DNA of 64,000 nt from an uncultured Verrucomicrobiae bacterium (GTDB lineage: Bacteria > Verrucomicrobiota > Verrucomicrobiia > Chthoniobacterales > JAATET01). Each line of letters starts with the position of its first letter. The first letter of the stretch is position 1. The stretch covers positions 577,455-641,454 of the forward strand of contig CAVXHK010000003.1 in assembly GCA_963761705.1 (NCBI GenBank), written 5' to 3'. The translations under genes and the position numbers were made by a program. Below, in pieces: positions 2,682 to 64,000 of the stretch. The notes beneath the pieces were generated by a model. The model was not told where the DNA came from. It worked only from the letters and a program-made list of their open reading frames with translations, and did no database searches.

Positions 2682-4469
2682 GAATTACGGAGTCGTCGGC
2701 GACCTGCACACGGTCGCCTTGGTGGGAATGGACGCGTCGATCGATTTCATGTGTTTCCCTCACTTCGACTCGCCGTCGATCTTCGCGGCGATGCTCGACG
2801 ACGAGAAGGGTGGGAGATTTTCCCTTGCACCGGAGATGCGGGACGCGAAGCACCGGCAGATGTATCTGCCGGACACGAACATCTTGCTCACGCGCTTTCT
2901 GGCTCACGAGGGAATCGGGGAGGTCTCGGACTTCATGCCGGTGGAGGAAAAGGGCCACGCCCACCAGATCGTTCGCCGGGCCAAGGCGGTGCGAGGTGAC
3001 ATCCGGTTTCGGCTGAATTTCGCGCCAGCCTTCGACTACGGGCGCTCGGGGCACAAGGTTGAGCGGACGTCCGACGGGATTGTCTTCACGAGCGAGGGCC
3101 GGGATCAGACCGCCCTCCGGCTGATCGTCCAGCACGAGGCCGAGATCAACATCGAGAACGGAGCGGCGACCGCCGAGTTCAAGCTGCACGCGGGCGAAAG
3201 CGTGTTTGTGATCATGGAAGACGCTCGAGATTGCAACGCGCCGAGGCGGCGGCGGAGCGACGACGTCTCGGAGCTTTTCAAGGAGACGCTGAATTTCTGG
3301 CGGGGCTGGTGCCATCATTCGAACTACCGAGGCCGCTGGCGTGAGATGGTGAAACGCTCGGCGCTCACGCTCAAAATGCTGGTCTCGCACCCGCACGGAT
3401 CGATCGTCGCGGCACCGACGTTCGGCCTGCCGGAAGCCATCGGCGGCGGGCGGAATTGGGATTACCGCTACACCTGGATTCGCGATGCGTCGTTCACGAT
3501 CTACGGACTCATGCGGCTTGGCTACACGGCGGAGGCGAAGCACTTCATGGGCTGGATCGAGGAGCGCTGCCGGGAGCTGGCCGACGGTCAGATGGCGATC
3601 ATGTATTCCATCGACGGGCAGTCCGATCTCCCCGAGATCAACCTCGATCACTGGGAGGGCTACCGGAAGTCTTCGCCGGTGCGGATCGGCAACGCGGCGC
3701 ACGGACAGCTCCAGCTCGACATCTACGGCGAGCTGATGGACTCGGTTTATCTCTACAACAAATACGGCGAGCCGATCTCCTACGACCTGTGGACGAGCCT
3801 CACGCGAATGATCGATTGGGTCTGCGACAACTGGAATCGGCCGGACGAAGGGATCTGGGAGATCCGCGGAGAGAAACAGCATTTCACTTACTCTCGAGTC
3901 ATGTGTTGGGTCGCGGTCGACCGGGGCGTGCGGTTGGCGCTCAAACGCTCGTTCCCGGCACCGATGGAGCGGTGGATGAAAGTGCGCGACGAGATTTACC
4001 ACGACGTCTATCGCAATTTCTGGGACCCCGATCTGCAGACGTTCGTCCAGCACCTCGGCTCGAAAGCGGTCGATGCGGCCTGTCTCCTCATGCCGATGGT
4101 GAAATTCATCGGCCCGACCGATCCGCGTTGGATCTCGACCTTGCGAGCCATCGAGAAATCGCTGGTCGCGGATTCGACCGTCTACCGCTACAGCACGGAG
4201 GACGGGGCTCACGACGGTCTCGAGGGGACGGAGGGGACCTTCTCGATGTGCTCGTTCTGGTACGTCGAGTGCCTGTCGCGGGCGGGCGACGTGGACAAAG
4301 CGCGGTTCCTCTTCGAGAAGACCCTCGGCTACGCGAATCACCTGGGTCTCTACTCGGAGGAGTTGGGCCCTGCGGCGAGCACCTGGGCAATTTTCCCCAG
4401 GCGTTCACGCACCTCGCCCTCATCAGCGCGGCCTACAACCTAGATCAGGAGTTGACGGCCCGTCGCTAG
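2662..4469 (+). CDS. GH15 glycoside hydrolase (glucoamylase/trehalase family), apparent 1-nt frameshift near 4364-4376
   Basis: Starts [45 protein letters not shown] and contains [16 protein letters not shown], both GH15 hallmarks. The conserved C-terminus [23 protein letters not shown] lies in the adjacent frame, which stops at 4469. The 934-aa track ORF 1639..4443 is a read-through of two genes. Confidence 0.85.
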
Positions 4470-6207: not shown

Positions 6208-6371
6208 CAGCCGTTAAACGTGCCTAGCCAGCTGAGCGGTCGCAAGTCCGGCGAGTCTTGACGACGCAATTGTGACATCCGCCAACTTTCCGAAGAAAAC
6301 TTTTGATTATCCAGGTGAAACCATTGATCATCTTATCAAGAAACTAAACTAACGGTCGGAGAAACTGAAAT

Positions 6372-27441: not shown

Positions 27442-27529
27442 GTTGATTGGTGGGTATGGGTCGAGGTGGTGCCGATGCTACGGGTTTTATCCGCTACTCT
27501 GTCGATAAAACCTATTATTACTCGTCGAA

Positions 27530-27558
27530 TGACATCAATTGTTGACGGGTGACATCGA
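27530..27558. promoter_or_regulatory. direct repeat TGACATCAA-N11-TGACATCGA in the divergent promoter region (candidate LytTR box)
   Basis: Two 9-mers, 8/9 identical, start 20 bp apart just upstream of or overlapping the LytTR regulator start. LytTR regulators typically bind paired 9-bp direct repeats about two helical turns apart. Confidence 0.3.
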
Positions 27559-52201: not shown

Positions 52202-54457
52202 TCAGCGTGGCTCGAGCCGGACGGCGCACGCCTTGTAGGCGGGCTGGCGGGACGTCGGGTCGACTTCGTTGCGGGTGAGTTCGTTGGTGACGCCGTAGTG
52301 CATCGGGAGGAAGACCTGGCCGGGTTGGACGATGGGGGTGACGCAGGCGCGGACGGTGATCGTGCCGCGGCGGGAGGTGACGGCGACTTGCGATTCGGCG
52401 GTGATGCCGAGGCGGGCGGCGTCGGCGGGGTGGATCTCGACGTAGGCGTCGGCGGGATAGAGTTTGCGGAGGACGTCGCTCTTGCCGGTGCGGGTCTGGG
52501 TGTGCCACTGCGAAGAGGTGCCGCGGCCGGTGAGGAGCGTGAAGGGATACTCGGCGTCGGGGGGCTCGGCGAGCGGGCGGGGGGATTCGAAGATAAAGCG
52601 GGCGCGGCCGTCGGGGTGGTGAAACTGGCCGTCCTGAAAGAGCCGACGCTCTTGATTTATGATTGATGATTTACCATTGATGATTTGGGAAGTTTGGGCT
52701 TCGCCCTGGGTATAAGGCCATTGGATGCCGCCTTCGGTGTCGAGGTGCTGGTAGTCGCGGATGCCGGAGATGTCGCAGGGTTGGTCGGCCAGGGCGCGTT
52801 TCATGATTTGGAACGCGGCCTCGGGGCTGGTCCACTCGGCGAAGAGGTCGCCGCAACCCCACGCCTCGGCGAGGACGCGGATGATGCTGAAATCACTCAG
52901 CGCCTGGCCGGGGGCGCGGCGGACTTTTTTGACGAGGCCGATGCGGCGCTCGGAGTTGATGAAGGTGCCGTCTTTTTCGCCCCAGCCGGCGGCGGGGAGG
53001 ACGAGGTCGGCAAGCTGGGCGGTCTCGGTGGAATGATACATGTCCTGGACGACGAGGTAGTCGAGCTTGCGAAGGAGAGCCTGGGCGCGCTTGGATTGGA
53101 TCCAGGAATGGGCCGTGTTCGTGGCAACGACCCAAAGGCCTTTGATCTGGCCCGTCTCGATGCCGTCGATGATCTGGTCGTAGGCGAGGCTGTCGTCGTG
53201 CGGGATACGGTCGACGGGGATCCGGAGGGCGGCGGCGACTTTTTCGCGGTCGGCGGCGCTCTGGAACTTATGGCCGCCGAGGAGGTTCGTCGTGCTGGAG
53301 AAAATGCGCGACCCCATGGCGTTGCACTGGCCGGTGATGGAATTTGCGCCGGTGCCGGGGCGGCCGATGTTGCCCGTCATCAAAGCAAGGTTGATGATGG
53401 CTTGCGCGGTGCGGGTGGCTTCGTGGCTCTGATTCACGCCCATCGTCCACCAGAACGAAACGCGCCGACCGCGGGCGATGGTCGCGGCGAGGTCGTGGAT
53501 TTGCGCGACGGCGAGGCCGGTGTCGGCGGCGACGCGCTCGGGCGTGAAAGTGGTGGCGAACGCGGCGAACTCCTCGAAGCCGGTGGTGTGGGCTTCGATG
53601 AAACGGCGGTCGACGGTGTCGATGGCGATGAGCAGGGCGGCGACGCCGTAGAGGAGGGCGAGGTCGGATTTTGGACGGAGCGCGAGGTGATCGGTCGCGG
53701 CCATCGCGGTCTCGGTGCGTCGGGGATCGATGACGATGATGCGCGGATCGTGGGGATTGCGCATGACGCGCTGCCACATGATGGGGTGCGCGACGCAGAG
53801 GTTGGAACCGACAAAAACGAGCACGTCGGACTCCTCGAAGTCGGCGTAGGTGTAGGGCGGGGCGTCGAACCCGAACGACTCTTTGTAGGCGGATACGGCC
53901 GTGGCCATGCACTGCCGCGTGTTGCCGTCACCGTGGCGGATCCCCATTCCAAACTTGGCGACCACTCCAAGGAACGCCATCTCCTCGGAGACAATCTGGC
54001 CGGTGCTCAGGAACGCGAGACTGTCGGGACCGTGCTCGCGCTGGATGCGCTGGAAATGATCGCGGAAGGCCGTGGCGGCGGTCGGCCAGTCCGACGGCTT
54101 CAGCTCGCCGGTTCCGGCGTCCCGGATGAGCGGGGTCGTCGCCCGGTCGGGTGCATCGAGAGCGGACAGGGCCTCCCATCCTTTCGGACAGGCCATGCCA
54201 AGATTGACCGGATACTCGGTGTCGGCGGAGAGGTTGATCGCCTCGCCGTCCTTGAGGTGGATTCGGAGCCCGCAGCCGGTCGCGCAGTAGCCGCAGACGG
54301 CGGTCGTGGTCGCGTCGGGCGTGAGGCGGGTGGGCACGGAGCCGAGCCCGAACGCGGCGGGGGACTGAACGAGGTCGGCCGTGAGCGGGCCGGTGCGGGG
54401 GCGGAGGAGGGAGTCGGTTGAGAGTTGAGAGTCGATGGCCGAGCGGAGTTTTGACAT
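52202..54457 (-). CDS. nasA: assimilatory nitrate reductase catalytic subunit (molybdopterin oxidoreductase, NasA/NarB type)
   Basis: N-terminal CGYCATGCG 4Fe-4S motif, MGD-binding domains and a C-terminal molybdopterin dinucleotide-binding domain. No twin-arginine motif in the N-terminus. Confidence 0.88.
52652..52689. repeat. AT-rich heptamer-periodic element inside nasA, in-frame (encodes [12 protein letters not shown])
   Basis: On the coding strand it reads AAATCAT CAATGGT AAATCAT CAATCAT AAATCAA. Nt 52655-52688 are 34/34 identical to 61306-61339, the nrtC-nrtD spacer. Confidence 0.9.
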
Positions 54458-54760: not shown

Positions 54761-54810
54761 ATCTTCCAACTCCTATTCTCAAACACCCGCACGTCCATTC
54801 GATGAGATGA

Positions 54811-56358
54811 TCACGCGCCGCCGGGCATGCGGTGGGCGACGACGGTGGTGAAGAATTGGTGGCGCTCGATGCCCTCGCTCAGGACGAGAATGGCCATACC
54901 GACGACCGGGAGGAAGGGGAGCAGCACCGCGCCAAGGACGGCGGTCGCGTTGCGCAGCAGCACCTGCCGGCGAAGCGGGCCGCGGAGGAGCTGGGCCGAG
55001 AGGGAATCGTGAGACGGGTCGGCGGGCGCGGCCTTTGCGCGGAAGCGGGCTTCGGCGAGAAGTTTTGCACCGAGGATCAGAAGCGCGATCGGATAACAGG
55101 CCGCGACGGCGGCGGTCGCAAAGAGTGCAACGGTGCCGTAAAACCGGAAAGCGGTGCGCGGAAAGCGCCAGAGTTCGCGCTGGGTATCGGCGTAGACCAT
55201 CACCGATGTGAATACGCAAAGGATGCCGTAGAGCGCAGCCGGGATGCCAATGAGACGCGGAAAGATCACCGCACCAGCGACGAGCGGCGGGAGAGCGCCG
55301 AAGGCGACGACCTCGCGGCTTAACCACGAGCGCCGCAGCCCGAGGAAGACGCGCCAGGCTTTGAGCGGCTGACCGAGGTGGAGGACGCTGGCGGTGAGGC
55401 CGGTCATGAGCGCCGCTAGCGCGGCGCAGTTGAGGGTTGAGAGTTTGAAGTTGAGAGTTGGTGAGAGGGTGAGGGGGAAGCTTGCCGACGAGATCGTTGC
55501 CGCGAGGACGAGACCAACGGCGGCCTGAGTGAGGGTGAGCATGATGACCAGCGGGAGGTGGCTGTGCTCGAGGCGGGGGCGGCGGGCGTCGGCGCGGCTG
55601 GCAGAGGACGGGATAATCTTTTTGGTGACGTAGCGGGTGGTGGGTTGCGTGTAGCTGGACGTGATGACGCCAGGCAGAAGCTGACCTTCGACCTTCGACT
55701 TTGGACTTTGGACTGAGACGATTTGAATCGCTTCCGTCGGGCAGGCTTGCACGCAGGCGGGGGCTTCGCCGACGGCGAGCCGCGAATGACACATGTCGCA
55801 TTTGCGGACGATGCCCTTTTTTTTGGAATACTTCGGGACGTCGTAGGGGCACTTGAGGCTGCAGTATTGGCAGCCGATGCACTGGTCGTCCAAATGGCGG
55901 ACGATGCCGGTGATTTCGTCCTTCTCGTAGGCGAGGACGGGGCAGCCGTTCGCGCAGGCGGGGTCGGCGCAGTGGTGGCAGGCGGTGGTGACGGTCTGCT
56001 GATACGCGATGCCTTCGGCTTCTCCGAGGAGCATACCGACGTCGCGCCACGTTTCGTTTTCCTCGAGTCCGTTCAGGCTGTGACAGGCGGAGACGCAGGC
56101 TTTGCAGCCGGTGCATTTGTCGAGGTCGACCTCGAACGCGTATTGCTCGCCGGGTCCGGGGGCGGTGAGGGGAATGAGGTCGCGGTAATGCTTGGCCTGA
56201 GTCGGACTCGTCGCGTCGGCGTGGTGCTGGGCGAAGCGCTCGGCCGCGGTGAGGTTGCGTTGCTCGGCGAGGAGTTCGTCGATGAGGTTGGGGGGAGTTG
56301 TTGGTTGTTGGTTATTGGTTATTGGTGAATGCCGCTCCGCTGGAGTGAGAGTGTTCAT
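54811..56358 (-). CDS. 4x[4Fe-4S] ferredoxin (DmsB/NrfC-like) fused to a DmsC-like polytopic membrane anchor
   Basis: Start ATG 56358 overlaps the DUF4202 stop as ATGA. Cys clusters CTGCKACVSAC, CHHCADPACANGC, CIGCQYCSLKC and CDMC...CVQAC, followed by ~8 TM helices. Three heptamer tracts lie in-frame. Confidence 0.75.
   Translation of the reverse strand: MNTLTPAERHSPITNNQQPTTPPNLIDELLAEQRNLTAAERFAQHHADATSPTQAKHYRDLIPLTAPGPGEQYAFEVDLDKCTGCKACVSACHSLNGLEENETWRDVGMLLGEAEGIAYQQTVTTACHHCADPACANGCPVLAYEKDEITGIVRHLDDQCIGCQYCSLKCPYDVPKYSKKKGIVRKCDMCHSRLAVGEAPACVQACPTEAIQIVSVQSPKSKVEGQLLPGVITSSYTQPTTRYVTKKIIPSSASRADARRPRLEHSHLPLVIMLTLTQAAVGLVLAATISSASFPLTLSPTLNFKLSTLNCAALAALMTGLTASVLHLGQPLKAWRVFLGLRRSWLSREVVAFGALPPLVAGAVIFPRLIGIPAALYGILCVFTSVMVYADTQRELWRFPRTAFRFYGTVALFATAAVAACYPIALLILGAKLLAEARFRAKAAPADPSHDSLSAQLLRGPLRRQVLLRNATAVLGAVLLPFLPVVGMAILVLSEGIERHQFFTTVVAHRMPGGA
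55430..55464. repeat. heptamer tract (TTGAGRG-type x5) in-frame in the membrane domain
   Basis: TTGAGGG TTGAGAG TTTGAAG TTGAGAG TTGGTGA, which encodes ...LSPTLNFKLSTLN.... Confidence 0.8.
55687..55714. repeat. heptamer tract (TTCGACC x2, TTGGACT x2) in-frame at the ferredoxin/membrane-domain junction
   Basis: Encodes VQSPKSKVEGQ between ...ACPTEAIQIVS and the first TM region. Confidence 0.85.
56298..56325. repeat. heptamer tract (TTGTTGG x2, TTATTGG x2) in-frame near the N-terminus
   Basis: Encodes ...SPITNNQQPTT..., 11-20 codons after the start. Confidence 0.85.
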
Positions 56359-56987
56359 GATGAGGCGAGCGCCTCGTTGAGGATCGACGCGGCCTCCGGG
56401 GAGACGGGGATGGCGGCGGCGAAGGCGTGCGCGGCGGGGGACATCTTTTTCCAGGTCTTGCGGAGGATCGTGACCAGTTGGTCGCGATTCGTTTTGTCGA
56501 TGAGCGCGTCGAGTTGTTGTTCGATGGTGACGAGGCAAAGGGCGTCTTCGAGGGTTTGCGTGTCGGGGTCGGTGCCGAGGTGTTCCTTGAGGTTGAGGGA
56601 GCGGACCCGGTCGATCAATTCGGTGTCGTAGCCAGCGGCGGCGAGGATGCCGGTCGCGGTGTCGGCGTGGAGGCGCTTGAGATTGGCTCGCCATTTGAGG
56701 TAACCGGGGCGAGTCATCGGGTAGGACGAACGCGGGACGCGCCACCGGGCGATGTGCTGGCAGCGGGCGGCGAGGCGAAGGGGTTCGGAGGGGGTGGGGT
56801 CAAGTTGGTGGACCCAGTGGGTGAGGCGTTGGGAATAGAAGAATTCGAAGGGGATGGGGGTCCCATCGACCTGGGCAGTTCGGGGGTCTTGGGCATTTTC
56901 CTCGTCGATTCTTGAAATGGCTTCTTCGAAGCGAGGGGAACGAGACCGGCTGGAAGCCGGTGCTACTCTGGGTTCAATACACATCAC
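56355..56987 (-). CDS. DUF4202-like protein
   Basis: RFEEAISRIDEENAQDP...RCQHIARWRVPRSSYPMTRPGYLKWRANLKRLHA matches my memory of DUF4202, which often neighbours nitrite/sulfite reductases. ATG 56987 overlaps the upstream gene by 14 nt. Confidence 0.55.
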   Translation of the reverse strand: MMCIEPRVAPASSRSRSPRFEEAISRIDEENAQDPRTAQVDGTPIPFEFFYSQRLTHWVHQLDPTPSEPLRLAARCQHIARWRVPRSSYPMTRPGYLKWRANLKRLHADTATGILAAAGYDTELIDRVRSLNLKEHLGTDPDTQTLEDALCLVTIEQQLDALIDKTNRDQLVTILRKTWKKMSPAAHAFAAAIPVSPEAASILNEALASS

Positions 56988-58734
56988 GTTGGTAGCGTTT
57001 GTTTGTTTTCAGGTCGGCTACGTAGGCGGCGGCTTCCTCTTCGGTTTTCCCTCCGGCGGTTTGGACGACTTGGTGGAGCGCCTCGTCGACGTCCTTGGCC
57101 ATGCGTTTGGCGTCGCCGCAGACGTAGAAATGCGCGCCGTCCTCGAGCCACGCCCAGAGGTCGGTCGCCCGCTCGATCATCCGATTCTGGACGTAGATTT
57201 TATCGGCCTGATCGCGGGAGAAAGCGGTGTCGAGGCGGGTGAGGTGGCCGTCCGCGAGAAAGGTTTCGAGTTCGTCCTCATAGAGAAAATCGGTGGCTGC
57301 TCTCTGGTCGCCAAAGAAGAGCCAGTTTTTTCCAGTTGCGCCGGTGGCTCGGCGATCATGGAGGAACGCGCGGAACGGCGCGATGCCGGTGCCGGGACCG
57401 ACCATGATCATCGGCGTGTCGCCCGACGGCGGGAGCCGGAAGCCTTTGGAGACCTGAACGAACACGGGGATCGGCCCCGTGACGCGGTCGGCGAGGAAGG
57501 TGGAGCAGACGCCCTTGCGCCCGCGACTGAAGCTGTCGTAGCGGACGGCGGCGATGGTGAGGTGGACTTGGTCGGGGAAGGCGTTGAGGCTCGACGAGAT
57601 TGAATAAAGCCGCGGCTGGAGCTTGCGAAGGTGGGACACGAAGTCGGCGGGCGTGAACGTGACGCCGGGGAAATCGACGAGCAGGTCGACGACCTCGCGG
57701 CCCCAGAGGTAATGCGCGAGCGCCTCCTTGGCTTCGGGGACCACGAGGTCGGCGAGCGTTTTGTCGGAGCTGCGTTCGGCGATGGCGTCGAGGAGCTGGG
57801 CGGGAATCCTGGTGATCTCGTAATCACGGACGAGGGCATTGCGGAGCGGGGCTTCGCCGCCTTCGGGCGTGGCCACGGCTTCCTCGCCGTCGCAATTGAG
57901 AGCGTGGAGGATCTCGTCGACGACGGCGGGGCAGTTCGACGGGATCACGCCGAGGGCGTCGCCGACTTCGTAGGTGAGGCCGGAGCCAGTGAGGTCGATT
58001 TCGAAGTGGCGGACTTCCTTGGCGGACGTGTCGGCGGTGAGCTTGCGGTTGGTGATGAGTTTGGCGGGGAAGGGGTGCTTTCTCCCGTAGGCGGGAGCAG
58101 GATTGATGATTGATGATTGATCATTTATGATTTGGGGAATGGCGGCTTCGCCGATTGGGAACTCGACCGACTCCAATGCGGTGAAGACGGCTTCCTGCCA
58201 GGTGGCGGCGGACTCTTCGTAGTCGACGTTGCAGTCGACTCGCTCGTAGAGGCGGCTGGCTCCGAGGTCGGTGAGGCGGGTGTCGACGTCGACTCCAAAT
58301 TTGCAGAACGCCTCGTAGTTCGTGTCGCCGAGGGCGAGGACGGAGTATCGGAAATTTTCGAGTCGCGGAGCCGTGTCGGCGATGAGTTCTTCGTGGAAAT
58401 CGTGGGCGTTGGCGGGTGGCTCGCCGTCGCCGAAGGTGCTCGTCACGATGAGGGCGACGGGCACGTTGGCTAAGTCCGCGACTTTGACTTTGTCGAGGCC
58501 GATGGCACTGGATTCCCAGCCGCGCTTCTTGGCGGCTTTGGCGATTTGTTTGGCCAGAGATTCGGCGTTGCCGCTTTCCGTGCCGAAGTAGATCGGGACC
58601 GTTTTTTTCGGGGCTTCGAGGGCCGCGGGAGTCGCGTCGTTGCCGGAGAAGACGCCCGCGAGGAAGCCGTTGAGCCAGGCGCGCTGCTCGGTCGAGAACG
58701 GAGCGGTGTCGGGAATGAAGGGTGCGGTGCTCAT
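56974..58734 (-). CDS. diflavin reductase (sulfite-reductase flavoprotein CysJ-like)
   Basis: Flavodoxin domain (IYFGTESGNAE, TFGDGEPP) plus an FAD/NADPH domain (RLYSISSS, MVGPGTGIAPFRAF, C-terminal ...YQRDVY). Confidence 0.85.
   Translation of the reverse strand: MSTAPFIPDTAPFSTEQRAWLNGFLAGVFSGNDATPAALEAPKKTVPIYFGTESGNAESLAKQIAKAAKKRGWESSAIGLDKVKVADLANVPVALIVTSTFGDGEPPANAHDFHEELIADTAPRLENFRYSVLALGDTNYEAFCKFGVDVDTRLTDLGASRLYERVDCNVDYEESAATWQEAVFTALESVEFPIGEAAIPQIINDQSSIINPAPAYGRKHPFPAKLITNRKLTADTSAKEVRHFEIDLTGSGLTYEVGDALGVIPSNCPAVVDEILHALNCDGEEAVATPEGGEAPLRNALVRDYEITRIPAQLLDAIAERSSDKTLADLVVPEAKEALAHYLWGREVVDLLVDFPGVTFTPADFVSHLRKLQPRLYSISSSLNAFPDQVHLTIAAVRYDSFSRGRKGVCSTFLADRVTGPIPVFVQVSKGFRLPPSGDTPMIMVGPGTGIAPFRAFLHDRRATGATGKNWLFFGDQRAATDFLYEDELETFLADGHLTRLDTAFSRDQADKIYVQNRMIERATDLWAWLEDGAHFYVCGDAKRMAKDVDEALHQVVQTAGGKTEEEAAAYVADLKTNKRYQRDVY
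58101..58136. repeat. AT-rich heptamer-periodic element in-frame in the flavodoxin-FNR linker (encodes QIINDQSSIIN)
   Basis: On the coding strand it reads AAATCAT AAATGAT CAATCAT CAATCAT CAATC. Confidence 0.9.
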
Positions 58735-58738
58735 TGGC

Positions 58739-60496
58739 TTAGTTCGTGAAGATTTCCTGCAGTTCGCCGACCGAATGCCGGGCCGTGAAGTCGCCGAAGG
58801 TCTCCGTGCCCTCGCGGCGTGCGAGGTAGGTTTTCAGGACGCCTTCGAGCAGCGCCGGGAGCTGCGGAAACGGAATGCCGGTGAAGACTTGGCGTCCGAT
58901 CATTTGCCCGCCGATGCTGCGTCCGCCGAGGACGACGTGGTAGCCGTCGACCTTCGCGCCGTTGTGGCTGACCTGGGCGCCGAGGAGGCCGATGTCGCCG
59001 ATGTAGTGCTGGGCGCAGGAATTCGGGCAACCGGTGAGGTGAATGTTGATCGGCTGGTCGAGGGTGAGCTTTTTCTGAAGGTGATTGGCTAATTCCAGCC
59101 CCTGCGCCTTGGTGGCGGATTGCGCCCATTTGCAGCCAGCGCTGCCGGTGCAGGCGATGAGGCCGCCGAGGATGGCGGTGGCTTCGTGGTGGAAGCCCAT
59201 GCGGACGAGGCTGCGCTTGACCGTCTCGACGAAGCCGTCGCTCACGTCGGGAACGAGGACGTTCTGCCAGACGGTGAGCCGGAGGTGGCCGGATCCGTGG
59301 TTCGCGGCGAGGTCGGCGAGCCGGTGCATCTGGCGGGAGGTCATCGTGCCGACGGGGGTGACGACGCCGACGTAATTGAGGTGTGGCTGTCTCTGACGCC
59401 AGACGCCGATGTGCGCGTGGGGGATCGGCGGGTGGGGTGGGGCGCAGGCTTCGAGGGGGAATGGGGTCAGCGGGAAGGCGAGTTTTTTCTCCGTTTCTTC
59501 GAGAAATTTCGGGATGCCCCACTGGTCGACCAAGTATTTGAGGCGCGCCTTTTTGCGGTTGGTGCGGTCGCCGTTTTCGGTGAAGACGCGGACCATGGCG
59601 GCGGCGACGGCGATGGCGTCGGCGGGTTTGACGAGGATGCCGGAGTCGGTGGCGAATTGCTCGTGGCCGGTGATGCCGCAGAGTTGAACGCGGAAGTAGA
59701 CGCCGGGCTCCACGGATTTCCCCTCGGGGACGCGGACGGCGAGGAAGCCGATGTCGTTGGTCTCGGCGACGGTGGCGATGGCGCCTCCGCCCTCGAAGGC
59801 GATGTTGAACTTCCGCGGCAGCTCATACATGTCGCGGTTGTTGAGGATGTAATAGTGCATTCCCTTGGCGAGCGGGCGGGTGTCGAGGAACTCGCCACGG
59901 TCGATGCCGCCGGTGGCCGACGCCGTGATGTTGCGCAGATTATCCACGCCGGATCCACGGGCGGTGAGGCCGAGGTCCTGCAATTTATTGAGCACGTTGA
60001 TCGTGTTCTTCGGCTCGATCTCGCGGATCTGCAGGTTGGCGCGGGTCGTGATGTGCGCGTATCCGCCGCCCCAGTCGTGCGCGATTTCCGCGATCCCGTG
60101 GAGTTGCGCGGACGTGAGTTCGCCGCCGGGGATCCGCATTCGCAGCATGAACGACTCCTGCACCGGGCTGACGTGGAAGAGGCCGAAATTGCGAAACTGA
60201 AACGTGTTGCGCTTGTCGGGAAGTTTGTTCTCCCGCGCGTGCTCGGCGAGGTCGTCCCACGTGTCGAGTCCGCTCTGCTCGTGCTTCCAGACTTCCTGCT
60301 CGCACAGGTCCTCGATCGGGGTGCCGTGGACCGTTGCCTCCGCGAGGTTCGGCGCGCCGGAGTCGGGGTCGCTGGTAAGGAGGCCGTCCGACTGCCGCCC
60401 GACGAAGGGTGCCCGCTGCGCGGCTCCGGCGAAGAAACCTTGCAGGTATTCCTTCTGTTCGGCGGTGAAGGGTTGAGTGGGCAGTTCGCTCATCAC
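58739..60496 (-). CDS. nirA: nitrite/sulfite reductase hemoprotein (siroheme-[4Fe-4S], NirA-type)
   Basis: Two NiR/SiR repeats and the Cys cluster CTGSAGC...LTGCPNSC. The + ORF 59120..60499 is its antisense shadow. Confidence 0.85.
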   Translation of the reverse strand: MMSELPTQPFTAEQKEYLQGFFAGAAQRAPFVGRQSDGLLTSDPDSGAPNLAEATVHGTPIEDLCEQEVWKHEQSGLDTWDDLAEHARENKLPDKRNTFQFRNFGLFHVSPVQESFMLRMRIPGGELTSAQLHGIAEIAHDWGGGYAHITTRANLQIREIEPKNTINVLNKLQDLGLTARGSGVDNLRNITASATGGIDRGEFLDTRPLAKGMHYYILNNRDMYELPRKFNIAFEGGGAIATVAETNDIGFLAVRVPEGKSVEPGVYFRVQLCGITGHEQFATDSGILVKPADAIAVAAAMVRVFTENGDRTNRKKARLKYLVDQWGIPKFLEETEKKLAFPLTPFPLEACAPPHPPIPHAHIGVWRQRQPHLNYVGVVTPVGTMTSRQMHRLADLAANHGSGHLRLTVWQNVLVPDVSDGFVETVKRSLVRMGFHHEATAILGGLIACTGSAGCKWAQSATKAQGLELANHLQKKLTLDQPINIHLTGCPNSCAQHYIGDIGLLGAQVSHNGAKVDGYHVVLGGRSIGGQMIGRQVFTGIPFPQLPALLEGVLKTYLARREGTETFGDFTARHSVGELQEIFTN

Positions 60497-60504
60497 TAAT
60501 CGGG

Positions 60505-61302
60505 TCAGTCCGCGAGGACCGGGTCGCCGAAGCGCTCGTAAAGGAAATCGAGGATCTGGTTGCGCAGCGTGTAATAGCGCGGGTCTTCGCCGATGGCGTC
60601 GCGGGAGCGCGGGCGCTCGAAGGGGACGTCGAAAATCTCGCCGACCGTGGCGGCGGGGCCGTTCGTGAGCATGACGATGCGGTCGGCGAGGAGAATGGCT
60701 TCGTCGATGTCGTGGGTGATCATCACGACGGTCGTGCGGGTCGCTTCCCAGATTTCGAGAAGCTGATCCTGAACTTCCTCGCGCGTGAGGGCGTCGAGCG
60801 CGCCAAATGGCTCGTCCAGGAGGAGGACTTTCGGGCGGATGGCGAGCGCGCGGGCGATGGCGACGCGTTGCTTCATTCCGCCGGAGAGTTCGCCGGGGCG
60901 CTTGTGGGCGCTGGGCGTGAGGCCGACCATCTCGATGTGTTCGTCGGTGATGCGGGCGCGCTCGGCCTTCGAGATCTTCGGCATCGTGGCGTCGACGGCG
61001 AGGCGGACGTTGTCGGTGGCGGTCAGCCAGGGGAGGAGCGAGTAGTTTTGGAAAACCATCATGCGGTCGGGGCCGGGTTCGGTCACTTCCCGGCCTTCGA
61101 GGATCACGCCGCCTTCGGTCGGGGCGCTCATGCCGGCGATGGCGTTCATGAGCGTGGATTTGCCGCAGCCGGAATGCCCGAGAAGGACGATGAACTCACC
61201 TTCCTCGACCTTGAGCGCGATGTCCTTGAGCACGCACGTCGGCGGACCGCCCGCGCGACCGGGATAGGTCTTCGTCAGTTTGGTGAGTTCGAGGTAGGGC
61301 AT
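60505..61302 (-). CDS. nrtD: nitrate/nitrite (NitT/TauT family) ABC transporter ATP-binding protein, NrtD-like
   Basis: Walker [19 protein letters not shown] signature, Walker [12 protein letters not shown]; 265 aa. Confidence 0.85.
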
Positions 61303-61303
61303 G

Positions 61304-61340
61304 TTATTTATGATTGATGATTTACCATTGATGATTTGGC
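61304..61340. repeat. AT-rich heptamer-periodic element filling the nrtC-nrtD intercistronic spacer
   Basis: The 42-nt gap between stop 61345 and ATG 61302 is essentially this element. 61306-61339 is identical to 52655-52688. Confidence 0.9.
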
Positions 61341-61344
61341 CGGG

Positions 61345-63138
61345 TTAGGCGGGCTGGAGGGTGGGGGACGGGTGGACTTGGTCGAGGAGAGTTTCGGGGT
61401 CCGCGGGCGGGGCGACGACTTTCCAGCGGGTGAGGCCTGCGAGGATGTTTTCCGACTCGGCGCGGGTGAGGGTGGTTTCGGAGAAGACGTTGAAGTCGGG
61501 GACTTCGGCGGTCTTTCCGTGGCCGTAGTCGTAGGTGCCGTCGAGACCGCGGGCGCTGTAGGCGGGGTCGGCGTTGACGTAGGTTTTTTGCGAAATGATT
61601 TCGATGAGCTCGGCGCGGTTGGCGGGTTCGTCGCACCAGCCGCAGGCTTCTTCGAGGGCGGCGACGATGGACGCGTGCTTGTCGACGTTGGCGTTCGCCC
61701 ACGCGGGCGTGGTGCCGAGGAGCTTCTCGACGTGGCCGGGGGCGAGGTCGAGGTCGGTTGCGACGACGTAGCCGATGCCCTCGTGAACGGCGCGGGCGTT
61801 CCAAGGTTCGCCGACGCAATAGCCGTCGAGGTTGCCGGCGGCGAGGTTGGCGACCATCTGCGCGGGCGGGACGGCGATAATCTCGACGTCCGTATCGGGG
61901 TCGATCCCGCCCGCGCTCAGCCAATCGCGGAGCAGGATATTGTGGGTGGAGGTCGGGAAAACCACGCCGAAGATGAGCTTGCGGTCGCCCGCGTCGCGTC
62001 CGTCGAGGTAGGCCCGAAGGTCGGTGGCGGTCTGGATCCCGCGGGCGTGAAAGCGCTCGGCGAGCGTGATGGCGTTGCCATTTCGGCTCAGGACCATCGA
62101 TGCGACGACGGGTTGCGGGTTCACCCCCGGGCGGCCCAGGGTGGAGCCGAGCGGCATACCGGCCACCATGGCGGCGAGGTCGAGTCGGCTGTCGAGGACG
62201 CCGTCGAGGATGGCCTTCCAACTCGGCTCGCGGCAGAGCTGAACGTCGACGCCGTGCTTCTCGAAAAATCCCTTTTCTTTTGCGATGGCTAATGGGGCGC
62301 AGTCGGAGAGCGGAATGAACCCGATGGTCGTGGCGGTTCGCTTCGGACCGTCGGCCTTTCTGGCTTTGTGCTTGTTGAGGAAATAGAGGAGTTCGTTGCG
62401 CTGCCGGTAATAGTTCGGGTGATTGATGGCCTCGCCGCGGGTGCGGGGTCGGGTGAGACCGACGGTCATGAGCTCGCCCACCTTGGCGGCGGGGCCGTTG
62501 GACATCATCACGACGCGGTCGGAGAGCAGGATCGCTTCTTCGACGTCGTGGGTGACCATGAGGACGGTGATGCGATGGGCCTCCCAAATGCTGAGGAGTT
62601 GTTCCTGCAGGCGGCCGCGGGTGAGGGCGTCGAGGGCGCCGAAGGGTTCGTCGAGGAGGAGGACGCGGGGCTTGACGACGAGGGCGCGGGCGATGCCGAC
62701 GCGCTGCTTCATGCCGCCGGAGATTTCGCCGGGGAGTTTGTCGGCGGCGGGGATGAGCGAGACCATGGCCAGGTGCTCGTCCACGAGGGCGGTCCGGTCG
62801 GCTTTGCCAAGGGTGCCGTGGACGGCGTCGACGCTGAGGCGGACGTTCTGGCGGACTGTTAGCCACGGGAGGAGGGAGTGGTTCTGGAAAACGAACATGC
62901 GGTCGGGGCCGGGGCCGGTGACGGGTTTGCCGCCAACGGTGATGCTGCCGGTGTCGCAGAGGTGGAAACCGCCGACCATGTTGAGAAGGGTCGATTTGCC
63001 GCAACCGGAGTGGCCGATGAGAGCCACGAATTCGCCCTCGCTAACGCTCAAATTGACCCCTTGGAGGGCGGTGAACGTTTTGCCGTCGGGGGACTTGAAG
63101 GTCTTTCCAGCGTCTTGAATGTCGATGAAAGCGGTCAA
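61345..63138 (-). CDS. nrtC: nitrate ABC transporter ATP-binding protein with a C-terminal NrtA-like solute-binding/regulatory domain, NrtC-like
   Basis: N-terminal ABC ATPase ([18 protein letters not shown]) plus a ~330-aa periplasmic-binding-protein-like domain, which is the NrtC architecture. The only possible start is TTG 63138, because an in-frame TAA lies directly upstream. Confidence 0.85.
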   Translation of the reverse strand: MTAFIDIQDAGKTFKSPDGKTFTALQGVNLSVSEGEFVALIGHSGCGKSTLLNMVGGFHLCDTGSITVGGKPVTGPGPDRMFVFQNHSLLPWLTVRQNVRLSVDAVHGTLGKADRTALVDEHLAMVSLIPAADKLPGEISGGMKQRVGIARALVVKPRVLLLDEPFGALDALTRGRLQEQLLSIWEAHRITVLMVTHDVEEAILLSDRVVMMSNGPAAKVGELMTVGLTRPRTRGEAINHPNYYRQRNELLYFLNKHKARKADGPKRTATTIGFIPLSDCAPLAIAKEKGFFEKHGVDVQLCREPSWKAILDGVLDSRLDLAAMVAGMPLGSTLGRPGVNPQPVVASMVLSRNGNAITLAERFHARGIQTATDLRAYLDGRDAGDRKLIFGVVFPTSTHNILLRDWLSAGGIDPDTDVEIIAVPPAQMVANLAAGNLDGYCVGEPWNARAVHEGIGYVVATDLDLAPGHVEKLLGTTPAWANANVDKHASIVAALEEACGWCDEPANRAELIEIISQKTYVNADPAYSARGLDGTYDYGHGKTAEVPDFNVFSETTLTRAESENILAGLTRWKVVAPPADPETLLDQVHPSPTLQPA

Positions 63139-63176
63139 TTTATTTATGATTTACCATTTATGATTGATGATTTGGG
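63139..63176. repeat. AT-rich heptamer array, left boundary of the four-helix-bundle cassette
   Basis: TTTATTTATGATTTACCATTTATGATTGATGATTTGGGG. Nt 63142-63165 match the reverse complement of 63527-63550 at 23/24 positions. Confidence 0.9.
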
Positions 63177-63184
63177 GTGAGATC

Positions 63185-63541
63185 ATGAATCGGGATCAAC
63201 TGGCGGCTCGGACGAAAGAGTTTGCGAAACGCGTGCTGAGGGTGGCTGAGGCGTTGCCGACTGGTTACGCGGGGCGGACGATTGGGAATCAGATCTGCCG
63301 AAGCGGGTGTTCGGTGGCCGCGAACTACCGGGCGGCTCTGCGCGGGAAGTCCCGAGCCGACTTTGCCAATAAGATCACCGTCGTTCTCGAGGAGGCGGAC
63401 GAAACGATGTTCTGGCTCGAAATGATCGACGAAATGGACCTGCTTCCGAAGAGCAAACTCGAGCCCCTCCTCGGCGAAGCCGGAGAGCTGGTCAAGATCT
63501 TCGGAGCAACCCTCGCCACCACCAAAAATCATAAATCGTAA
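63185..63541 (+). CDS. four-helix-bundle protein (23S rRNA IVS protein / Avd-like family), full-length copy 1
   Basis: 118 aa: MNRDQLAARTKEFAKRVLRVAEALP...GNQICRSGCSVAANYRAA.RGKSRADFANKI..VLEEADETMFWLEM. The family pattern (F...v......P........Q..RS..SI.AN..EG....S..DF..k......E..ET..WL) is recognisable. It lies antisense to the nrt operon. Confidence 0.8.
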   Translation: MNRDQLAARTKEFAKRVLRVAEALPTGYAGRTIGNQICRSGCSVAANYRAALRGKSRADFANKITVVLEEADETMFWLEMIDEMDLLPKSKLEPLLGEAGELVKIFGATLATTKNHKS

Positions 63542-63560
63542 ATCATAAATCATAAATCTA
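63526..63560. repeat. (AAATCNT)x5 heptamer array, right boundary of copy 1
   Basis: AAATCAT AAATCGT AAATCAT AAATCAT AAATCTA. It overlaps the last codons and the stop of copy 1. Confidence 0.95.
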
Positions 63561-63562
63561 AC

Positions 63563-63856
63563 GTGGCGTTGCCGACTGGTTACGCGGGGCGGACGATTGG
63601 GAATCAGATCTGCCGAAGCGGGTGTTCGGTGGCCGCGAACTACCGGGCGGCTCTGCGCGGGAAGTCCCGAGCCGACTTTGCCAATAAGATCACCATCGTT
63701 CTGGAGGAGGCGGACGAAACGATGTTCTGGCTCGAAATGATCGACGAAATGGACCTGCTTCCGAAGAGCAAACTCGAGCCCCTCCTCGGCGAAGCCGGAG
63801 AGCTGGTCAAGATCTTCGGAGCAACCCTCGCCGCCACCAAAAATTATAAATCGTAA
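63563..63856 (+). CDS. four-helix-bundle protein, 5'-truncated tandem copy 2
   Basis: Homology to copy 1 begins at 63566 (=63251). It lacks the first ~22 codons, and GTG 63563 is a possible start. I count 4 substitutions over ~290 nt versus copy 1. It may be non-functional. Confidence 0.6.
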   Translation: MALPTGYAGRTIGNQICRSGCSVAANYRAALRGKSRADFANKITIVLEEADETMFWLEMIDEMDLLPKSKLEPLLGEAGELVKIFGATLAATKNYKS

Positions 63857-63882
63857 ATCATAAATCATAAATCATAAATCTA
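63841..63882. repeat. (AAATNNT)x6 heptamer array after copy 2
   Basis: AAATTAT AAATCGT AAATCAT AAATCAT AAATCAT AAATCTA, one unit more than after copy 1. Confidence 0.95.
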
Positions 63883-63884
63883 AC

Positions 63885-64000
63885 GTGGCGTTGCCGACTG
63901 GTTACGCGGGGCGGACGATTGGGAATCAGATCTGCCGAAGCGGGTGTTCGGTGGCCGCGAACTACCGGGCGGCTCTGCGCGGGAAGTCCCGAGCCGACTT
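63885..64000 (+). CDS. four-helix-bundle protein, 5'-truncated tandem copy 3 (partial; runs off the right edge)
   Basis: Sequence from 63888 repeats 63566 onward, with the same junction CTAACGTGGCGTTGCCGAC. Confidence 0.55.
   Translation, partial: MALPTGYAGRTIGNQICRSGCSVAANYRAALRGKSRAD

Follow-up and report, generated by a model that had tools for sequence, protein, structure and literature searches.

A four-helix-bundle gene between inverted heptamer arrays in a verrucomicrobial nitrate operon resembles the intervening sequences of 23S rRNA

Introduction

What is a short antisense gene, held between inverted arrays of a heptamer and followed by truncated copies of itself, doing at the head of nrtC in a nitrate operon? 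The locus lies at the end of a stretch of 64,000 nucleotides from an uncultured Verrucomicrobiae bacterium (contig CAVXHK010000003.1, positions 577,455 to 641,454), which as a whole is referred to as the window. The gene encodes a four-helix-bundle (4HB) protein of the S23p, or 23S_rRNA_IVP, family (PF05635/TIGR02436), and to our knowledge no function is known for this family outside diversity-generating retroelements (DGRs). A preliminary description, made from the letters of the window, had proposed a discrete cassette like the intervening sequences (IVSs) of 23S rRNA or like miniature inverted-repeat transposable elements (MITEs), amplified in tandem by way of its heptamer arrays. Our analysis favors, with a probability of about 55%, an old and vertically inherited cassette of the IVS type, in which a functional 118-aa S23p-family gene, antisense in the nrtB-nrtC spacer, lies in the loop of a stem of about 25-32 bp formed by arms of about 4.5 heptamers.

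Results

The gene and its arms

The family assignment was borne out by profile searches, in which the product of 63185-63541 scored 49.8 bits against PF05635 (cut-off 33.8) and 74.7 bits against TIGR02436 (cut-off 24) and exceeded both curated cut-offs. An alignment-based AlphaFold2 monomer model has a predicted local distance difference test score of 95.1, with helices at residues 3-23, 28-53, 57-83 and 89-115. In Foldseek, the model matches stand-alone S23-family structures with template modeling (TM) scores of 0.81-0.85 for 2RLD and about 0.8 for 2GSC, relatives that both show five chains in their crystal forms, and phmmer against 2rld_A gave an E-value of 3.7e-17. A motif GxxRxxxSxxxNxxE has been reported for the family (PMC3936711). 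R39, S43 and N47 are invariant in our alignment of close homologues (A1), while the G position is taken by an equally invariant Q36 and the E position by A50 in the window protein. A single-sequence search (E <= 1e-3) gave 8,707 representatives of the family at 50% identity. Only two weak, unannotated matches were found in a phage collection, and no other 4HB gene was found elsewhere in the window. The idea that PF05635 is a HEPN family was dropped, as it is absent from the HEPN survey.

Together with its inverted heptamer arms, the gene makes up a cassette of about 420 bp (Table 1). The inverted repeat of 23 matches in 24 positions reported earlier between the arms was recovered. The left array lies 1-3 nt from the nrtC TTG and is therefore the immediate 5' leader of nrtC on the minus strand, where (AAATCAT)n stops 1-3 nt before this start codon and 3 nt before the nrtD ATG. 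The cassette thus stands antisense against the start of nrtC, as had been described, in an otherwise co-directional operon: nrtC shares its direction with nrtD and with the upstream genes for nitrite reductase and a flavoprotein. Allowing at most two mismatches, 18 occurrences of AAATCATAAATCAT were counted in the window, where 0.09 would be expected by chance. The predicted RNA duplex between the arms has an energy of -34.7 kcal/mol in the sense and -36.9 kcal/mol in the antisense transcript, and in the minimum-energy fold of either strand the arm stem encloses the entire cassette (z about -3). No Rfam family was found in 60000-64000.

The closest relative, the metagenomic contig L001, is collinear with window positions 54775-63558 at 82% nucleotide identity. 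Its genes are ordered nrtD-nrtC-4HB(+)-nrtB-nrtA. The same arms are present on both sides, and they enclose only one 4HB gene, whose product has 89% amino-acid identity to that of the window. Between the two sequences the right arm is identical at 44/44 positions and the left arm at 44/45, though 59% of synonymous sites differ. The 4HB gene is under strong purifying selection, with a dN/dS of 0.058 at a dS of 1.15, as compared with a dN/dS of 0.27 for nrtC. The low dN/dS and the near-identical arms mean that protein and arm sequences are both strongly constrained. The cassette had been described as inserted at the head of nrtC, and a recent insertion does not agree with the single copy at the same site in L001 or with about 20 more distant lineages that carry a cassette at a junction between ATP-binding cassette (ABC) permease and ATPase genes. 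An empty site for the filled-versus-empty comparison is seen in Verrucomicrobia UBA6056, where nrtB and nrtC overlap.

Related cassettes in metagenomes

Scanning metagenome contigs with the alignment of close homologues gave 80 loci with 55-68% identity, and arm statistics were taken from the 67 distinct cassettes for which both flanks were available. Of these, 60 carry an inverted repeat of 16 bp or more, and the median repeat is 28 bp with about two mismatches. The two arms contain 4.6 and 4.4 units, with narrow interquartile ranges. In nearly all related genes, about ATTTATGATTTACGATTTATGATTGATGATTT precedes the gene and AATCATAAATCGTAAATCATAAATCATAAAT follows it. The latter array starts within the last codons, nearly always 12-13 nt before the end of the last one, and the arm therefore encodes the C-terminus RNHKS and the stop. 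The median energy of the arm duplex is -40.6 kcal/mol in the sense and -37.4 kcal/mol in the antisense strand, compared to -20.4 for shuffled arms.

Neighbouring genes come close up to the arms, their boundaries being 56-70 nt upstream of the 4HB ATG and 16-22 nt downstream of the 4HB stop codon. The commonest arrangement has both neighbours on the opposite strand (divergent left start in 45/62, convergent right stop in 34/50). The inverted arrangement of the arms gives the operon mRNA the form stop-(AUGAUUU)n-about 400 nt-(AAAUCAU)n-start in either orientation of the gene. The contexts are limited in number and recur: the ABC permease/ABC ATPase junction accounts for 21-23 cassettes, a DHO_dh-like gene for 10, the start codon of an RNase III gene for 9, a pair of hypothetical genes for 7, Alpha-E/ATP-grasp for 2 and holA for 1. 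The 4HB tree mostly groups by genomic context, which indicates long vertical residence. One contig, L088, holds two cassettes in one operon that are 96% identical to each other.

In L082, L086, L089, L092, L093, L097, L104, L105 and L117, an arm adjoins the first codon of the RNase III gene (PF14622, PF00636, dsrm). This contact is found either about 60 nt 5' or about 10-20 nt 3' of the 4HB gene and would mean a long hairpin in the rnc leader.

Plasmid loci and other phyla

A tblastn search of plasmids gave 31 records, from which twelve loci were taken (L162-L173; Chloroflexota, Cyanobacteriota, Bacteroidota, Spirochaetota and Bacillota). Each of the twelve 4HB genes is flanked by inverted arrays of period 7 and lies between operon genes, including DUF1156/Swt1-HEPN, drmD/MmeI, helicase/methylase, csx2/cas1, hsdS/hsdR and RND adaptor/permease. 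The design of gene plus inverted heptamers is found recurrently in at least six phyla. The earlier proposal of a discrete IVS-like cassette is supported: gene, inverted arms and an arm stem in the folds of both strands are present in the window, and the architecture is shared by 60/67 related and 12/12 plasmid loci.

Among the plasmid loci, heptamer type tracks the clade of the protein and not the host. Dolichospermum and Nostoc (84% protein identity) share the heptamer TAATTCG, Pseudanabaena and Chlorohelix p1 (68%) an ATGAAG-type, and Chondrinema and Euhalothece (55%) CAGTNAN, while the cassettes of Chlorohelix p1 and Chlorohelix p2 (42%) have different heptamers. Three control regions of 50 kb contain 9 period-7 arrays, of which 7 are no more than 180 nt away from the only 4HB gene of the region. 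At L170 1201-1545, between hsdS and hsdR of a Monoglobus pectinilyticus plasmid, a 4HB homologue with AATTAGG/CCTAATT arms has no coding sequence in the distributed gene table.

As a caveat to this association, cyanobacteria also carry intergenic tandem heptamer arrays known as short tandemly repeated repetitive (STRR) sequences. Our tblastn scan with NrtC returned mostly cyanobacterial nrtC at about 50% identity, and these loci (L002-L081) served as a control of 1.38 Mb. No 4HB gene was found in these 1.38 Mb of mostly cyanobacterial nrt loci, and even so period 7 was the commonest tandem-repeat period (244 rows, 228 merged arrays per 1.38 Mb, 0.166 arrays per kb). The arrays in L002-L081 often lie just upstream of nrtC, and inverted matched pairs are frequent, forming short hairpins or enclosing genes such as a response regulator or nrtD. 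Several NrtC matches longer than 1.8 kb (L023, L045, L047-L056 and others) span 2.1-2.7 kb for about 590 residues and may represent joined nrtC and nrtD matches or insertions.

Inversion and reduced forms

In comparisons of L104 2943-3366 with L117 1542-1964, and of L089/L104 with L082, the flanks align reversed and the core forward, with the breakpoints in the arms. The cassette has thus been flipped in place between related lineages via its arms. The hypothetical-pair context also occurs in both orientations (L115/L126 as compared with L094 and others).

Reduced forms are also found. L120 1937-2045 is a gene-less arm pair with a loop of 50 nt, and such mini-hairpins consist of a left arm, 23-93 nt and a right-type arm, either standing alone or directly 5' of a full gene with its own right arm. 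In L130 and L138 (about 2860-3000), L152 (about 2890-3000) and L162 (1019-1181), the order is arm, short remnant, arm, full gene, arm. These forms suggest that full cassette, mini-hairpin and solo arm belong, in this order, to one series, and the solo arm at window positions 61302-61337, absent in L001, fits it. Flanking direct repeats at 52 cassettes were 0-2 nt long and no longer than in shuffled pairings (up to 7 nt), and no target-site duplications were therefore evident.

The tandem array

The truncated tandem copies that had been seen after the full gene are real, although the unit starts given earlier were one base off. Tandem Repeats Finder (TRF) reports a repeat at 63250-64000 with a period of 315, 2.4 copies and 97% matches. 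Direct reading of the sequence places GGCG at 63250, 63565 and 63887, i.e., periods of 315 and 322. Copies 2 and 3 start at codon 23, so that codons 1-22 (helix 1) and the ribosome-binding region are gone. Four substitutions, of which three are non-synonymous, separate copy 2 from copy 1, and the truncated copy still scores above the PF05635 and TIGR02436 cut-offs. The reported difference of one unit between the heptamer arrays was reproduced by TRF (4.7 vs 5.7 units), and the suggested instability of the tract stands, as the number of heptamers varies by slippage. The extra copies, having lost helix 1, are probably dead pseudogenes.

A protein-cluster record assigns three different 4HB products to a single contig of 708,059 bp. 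They are the product of the full gene, there given a longer start, that of copy 2 of the window, and that of a third copy, truncated to 97 aa and ending in ATTKNHKS. This means that there are at least three units with complete 3' ends and that the assembler traversed the array. The third product also agrees with the earlier view that the array runs past the window edge.

The repeat unit extends from GGCG inside the gene (63250) to GGCG beyond the right arm, 7 nt past the last heptamer register. After the right arm, L001 continues as AAATCAGGC-TGGCGACGGTCA into the nrtB stop, and the window as AAATCTAACGTGGCG joined to TTGCCGACTGG. As the junction lies outside the right arm, at a GGCG microhomology shared with the gene interior, it indicates an ordinary duplication that was not mediated by the arms. 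The heptamer arrays do not, as had been supposed, bound or drive the amplification. The signature at the junction is that of a microhomology-mediated tandem duplication followed by unequal exchange: a segment of 315 bp (all but the 5' fifth of the gene, together with the right arm and 7 nt of flanking sequence) would have been duplicated in tandem at GGCG and later raised to three or more copies, presumably through unequal recombination, and slippage would have added one heptamer to one copy. The amplification is a lineage-specific and mundane local event, L001 having one copy at this site, with little significance of its own. The proposal that the arrays act as recombination substrates therefore stands for the inversion in situ, with breakpoints in the arms, and falls for the amplification.

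Solo arrays and neighbouring genes

Three solo arrays are present elsewhere in the window, so heptamer arrays are not exclusive to the cassette. One fills the nrtC-nrtD spacer (Table 1). The arm sequence is also found in frame within two enzymes of the nitrate cluster, at 58101-58134 and 52650-52686, and encodes nearly the same peptide in both. In the flavoprotein, the in-frame array is QIINDQSSIINP, between the Flavodoxin_1 and FAD_binding_1 domains, and in the molybdopterin oxidoreductase it gives a 12-residue peptide between the Molybdopterin and Molydop_binding domains. The flavoprotein site in L001 has a more GC-rich heptamer array (GTGATTG/GTGACTG). The window has 63% GC, with further AT-rich islands at 6284-6356 and 27505-27543 that are not built of heptamers.

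Table 1. Coordinates of the cassette, its truncated copies and adjoining genes in the window
Feature	Position	Strand	Remarks
nrtD (ABC ATPase)	60505..61302	-	Profile match
Solo left-arm copy	61302..61337		Fills nrtC-nrtD spacer, 3 nt from nrtD ATG; none in L001, where the genes overlap
nrtC (ABC ATPase and NrtA-like domain; TIGR01184 and NMT1_2)	61345..63138	-	TTG start at 63138; downstream of the cassette in operon direction
Left arm	63140..63176		About 5 heptamers (ATGATTT-type on the + strand), 1-3 nt from nrtC TTG
Inverted-repeat core, left side	63142..63165		Pairs with 63527-63550, 23/24
Spacer before ATG	63177..63184	+	GGGGTGAG(ATC); possible Shine-Dalgarno of the 4HB gene
Full 4HB gene (S23p / 23S_rRNA_IVP family)	63185..63541	+	118 aa; last four codons (N-H-K-S) and stop within right arm
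Right arm 1	63526..63558		4.7 AAATCAT-type heptamers
Duplication junction	63559..63568		Flank remnant TAACGT, then GGCG microhomology; homology to gene position 63250 restarts
Repeat unit 2	63565..63886	+	322 bp; 4HB without codons 1-22; open reading frame 63563-63856, 97 aa, GTG start
Right arm 2	63841..63880		5.7 heptamers, one unit above arm 1
Repeat unit 3, cut by window edge	63887..64000	+	Complete product probably P0002 (97 aa, ends ATTKNHKS)

Discussion

The arms adjoin the neighbouring stop and start codons, the nrtB stop being placed by synteny with L001, and this geometry suggests how an IVS-type cassette might be accommodated in the nitrate operon. In a transcript of either strand, the arms would pair, loop out the gene and place the stop codon of nrtB beside the start codon of nrtC. 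The arm stem would be cut by RNase III, separating the cassette from the operon mRNA and leaving an A/U-rich leader at nrtC. Such processing is proposed by analogy with the IVSs of 23S rRNA, and the arm that abuts the rnc start codon in nine related cassettes is circumstantial evidence in its favor.

Several observations weigh against this reading. The types of mismatch in the arms show no clear strand-specific G-U pattern, and the duplex energies are alike on both strands, so a role at the DNA level or in protein binding fits equally well. Complementarity of a locus's own arms is 41.2, compared to 40.1 with the arms of other loci (permutation p of about 0.02). This locus-specific covariation is weak, and the arms are therefore mostly a conserved consensus within the subfamily. 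A scan for a promoter and terminator of the antisense 4HB gene found nothing, the promoter scan being limited to the sigma-70 consensus. Finally, the array is known from assembled sequence, and the window edge falls within it. Together with the single copy in L001, this would agree with an assembly artefact, in which strain variants of one cassette were strung together or a repeat was over-expanded. We consider such an artefact improbable, as the copies differ by the four substitutions and one heptamer while keeping a consistent register and identical junctions, and the three different products are recorded on the same 708-kb contig. Comparable rearranged tandem forms are also present independently in L130/L138, L152 and L162.

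A further explanation is that the heptamer arrays are primarily binding sites of a 4HB oligomer, which forms a ring of five subunits in relatives of known structure. On this view, the cassette would be a module of protein plus operator that autoregulates or controls translation or stability of the arm-adjacent gene, with the hairpin secondary. This is a possibility that we hold only tentatively. It agrees with the joint occurrence of the 4HB family and inverted period-7 arrays in six phyla, with the clustering of 7/9 such arrays near the single 4HB gene in the control regions, and with arms that abut start codons. Heptamer type also goes with 4HB clade, as the two Chlorohelix cassettes differ while the cross-phylum pairs (55-84% identity) share types. 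Arm length is held at about 4.5 units, and five chains are seen in 2RLD and 2GSC. The strong purifying selection on the protein fits as well, and Avd is part of a nucleic-acid-containing ribonucleoprotein (8UB7). However, binding is a prediction, and gene and arms that travel together would equally yield the correlation between clade and heptamer. Many cyanobacterial heptamer arrays and hairpins have no 4HB gene nearby, and some arrays extend far beyond five units (41 in Treponema, 12.6 in Euhalothece). The operator explanation is compatible with the IVS-type cassette, and binding may coexist with a role of the hairpin.

The cassette might instead be a mobile element whose ends are the heptamer arrays and which is moved by the 4HB protein or a factor in trans, with solo arms and gene-less hairpins as non-autonomous or decayed derivatives and the tandem array as a product of its activity. 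Its outer inverted-repeat ends are sharp (ATTTATGA...TCATAAAT), and cassettes of this type are present at a minimum of five unrelated junctions among Verrucomicrobia-like contigs, with eight further operon contexts outside this group, in other phyla. The 96%-identical pair in one L088 operon, the mini-cassettes with both arms and a loop of 23-50 nt, and the empty sites (the nrtB/nrtC overlap in UBA6056 and the nrtC/nrtD solo arm missing in L001) can be read in the same way, and mobility of IVSs was proposed by Ralph and McClelland (as cited in PMC4990558). On the other hand, target-site duplications did not rise above chance, and no transposase or recombinase is seen in or beside the element among the neighbour genes of relatives. 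The 4HB sequences cluster mostly by context, as expected from long vertical residence, and the junction of the amplified units sits at a microhomology beyond the arm. We therefore regard mobility as unlikely, and the MITE-like behaviour suggested in the preliminary description is not supported by the target-site analysis or by the tree.

It is also conceivable, with a similarly low likelihood, that 4HB genes and inverted heptamer arrays make up one universal two-part element, in which a roughly pentameric protein recognises its own arms of about five units in RNA or DNA. The two parts would have spread jointly to intercistronic sites, including defence operons, and to 23S rRNA as the IVS, and the gene-less hairpins and solo arrays (STRR or TAACTGA-type) that abound in cyanobacterial and other genomes would be its non-autonomous or decayed derivatives. 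If true, this would give a function both to an orphan protein family and to bacterial heptamer repeats.

The least probable explanation, which we give almost no weight, is that the gene is the Avd of a DGR that lies partly outside the window. The fold is similar, with Foldseek TM scores of about 0.74 to Avd (4DWL, 8UB7), but the identity is 11-12% and stand-alone S23-family structures match better. No reverse transcriptase (RT) gene was called within 10 kb on either side in the syntenic L001, the check suggested earlier for a DGR, in which template-repeat/variable-repeat (TR/VR) pairs were not searched. RT families are likewise absent from the recurrent contexts, and the downstream neighbours are nrtB and nrtA. 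The tandem array is the one repeat that was noted close to the gene.

Our results have some wider implications. The packaging of 4HB genes between clade-specific inverted heptamer arrays gives a handle on a large orphan family. It is seen in nutrient-transport, restriction-modification, DISARM and CRISPR operons and, according to the literature, in 23S rRNA. The design predicts either recognition of the repeats by the protein or processing of the hairpin by RNase III, and it connects the IVSs of 23S rRNA with the unexplained heptamer repeats that lie between genes in cyanobacteria and other bacteria. For annotation, the cassette should be treated as a recurrent sense or antisense passenger of operons and not as a member of the pathway.

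Comparison with known systems

Avd (4DWL, 8UB7) has the same four-helix-bundle fold and belongs to the same Pfam family as the window protein (PMC10053308), at the low identity given above. The heptamer hairpin arms on either side set the cassette apart from Avd. With MITEs and other terminal-inverted-repeat elements, the cassette has in common its sharp-ended terminal inverted repeats, gene-less miniatures and multiple insertion contexts. The cassette differs from them in having no target-site duplication, no transposase and a long vertical residence per site.

TAACTGA heptamer arrays occur in Beggiatoaceae, cyanobacteria and Bacteroidetes as 2-6 tandem units, intergenic and a few nt before a start codon, where no Shine-Dalgarno site is present. 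Some are inside ORFs, and they are direct repeats, with one inverted case in 170 sets (PMC4679880). In these respects they resemble the arrays next to the start codons of nrtC (left arm) and nrtD (solo arm) as well as the pair of in-frame arrays. In contrast to the inverted pair around the 4HB gene, TAACTGA arrays have no linked gene family.

The closest likeness is to the 23S rRNA IVSs with an S23p ORF of Coxiella burnetii and Leptospira (PMC4990558), which have about the same size as the cassette (420-430 nt), a stem of about 28 bp and an ORF of the same family. The Coxiella IVS has 428 nt, with a terminal inverted-repeat stem of 28 bp that is cut by RNase III and an S23p ORF in the loop, and it carries tandem heptamers whose number varies between strains (PMC4990558). 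IVS heptamers lie at the 5' side, whereas both arms of the cassette consist wholly of heptamers. The ORF is under strong purifying selection in the cassette and decaying in the Coxiella IVS. RNase III cleavage is established for the latter, and for the cassette it would follow by analogy. An IVS proper of 23S rRNA was rejected on location, as the flanks are nrtC and (by synteny) nrtB: IVSs lie in helix 25 or 45 of 23S rRNA, and the cassette between protein-coding genes of an mRNA operon. The literature that we searched does not describe inverted heptamer arrays around 4HB genes outside rRNA. Collectively, the comparison presents the cassette as a variant of the IVS/S23p element, whose cross-phylum design of gene plus heptamers merits follow-up.

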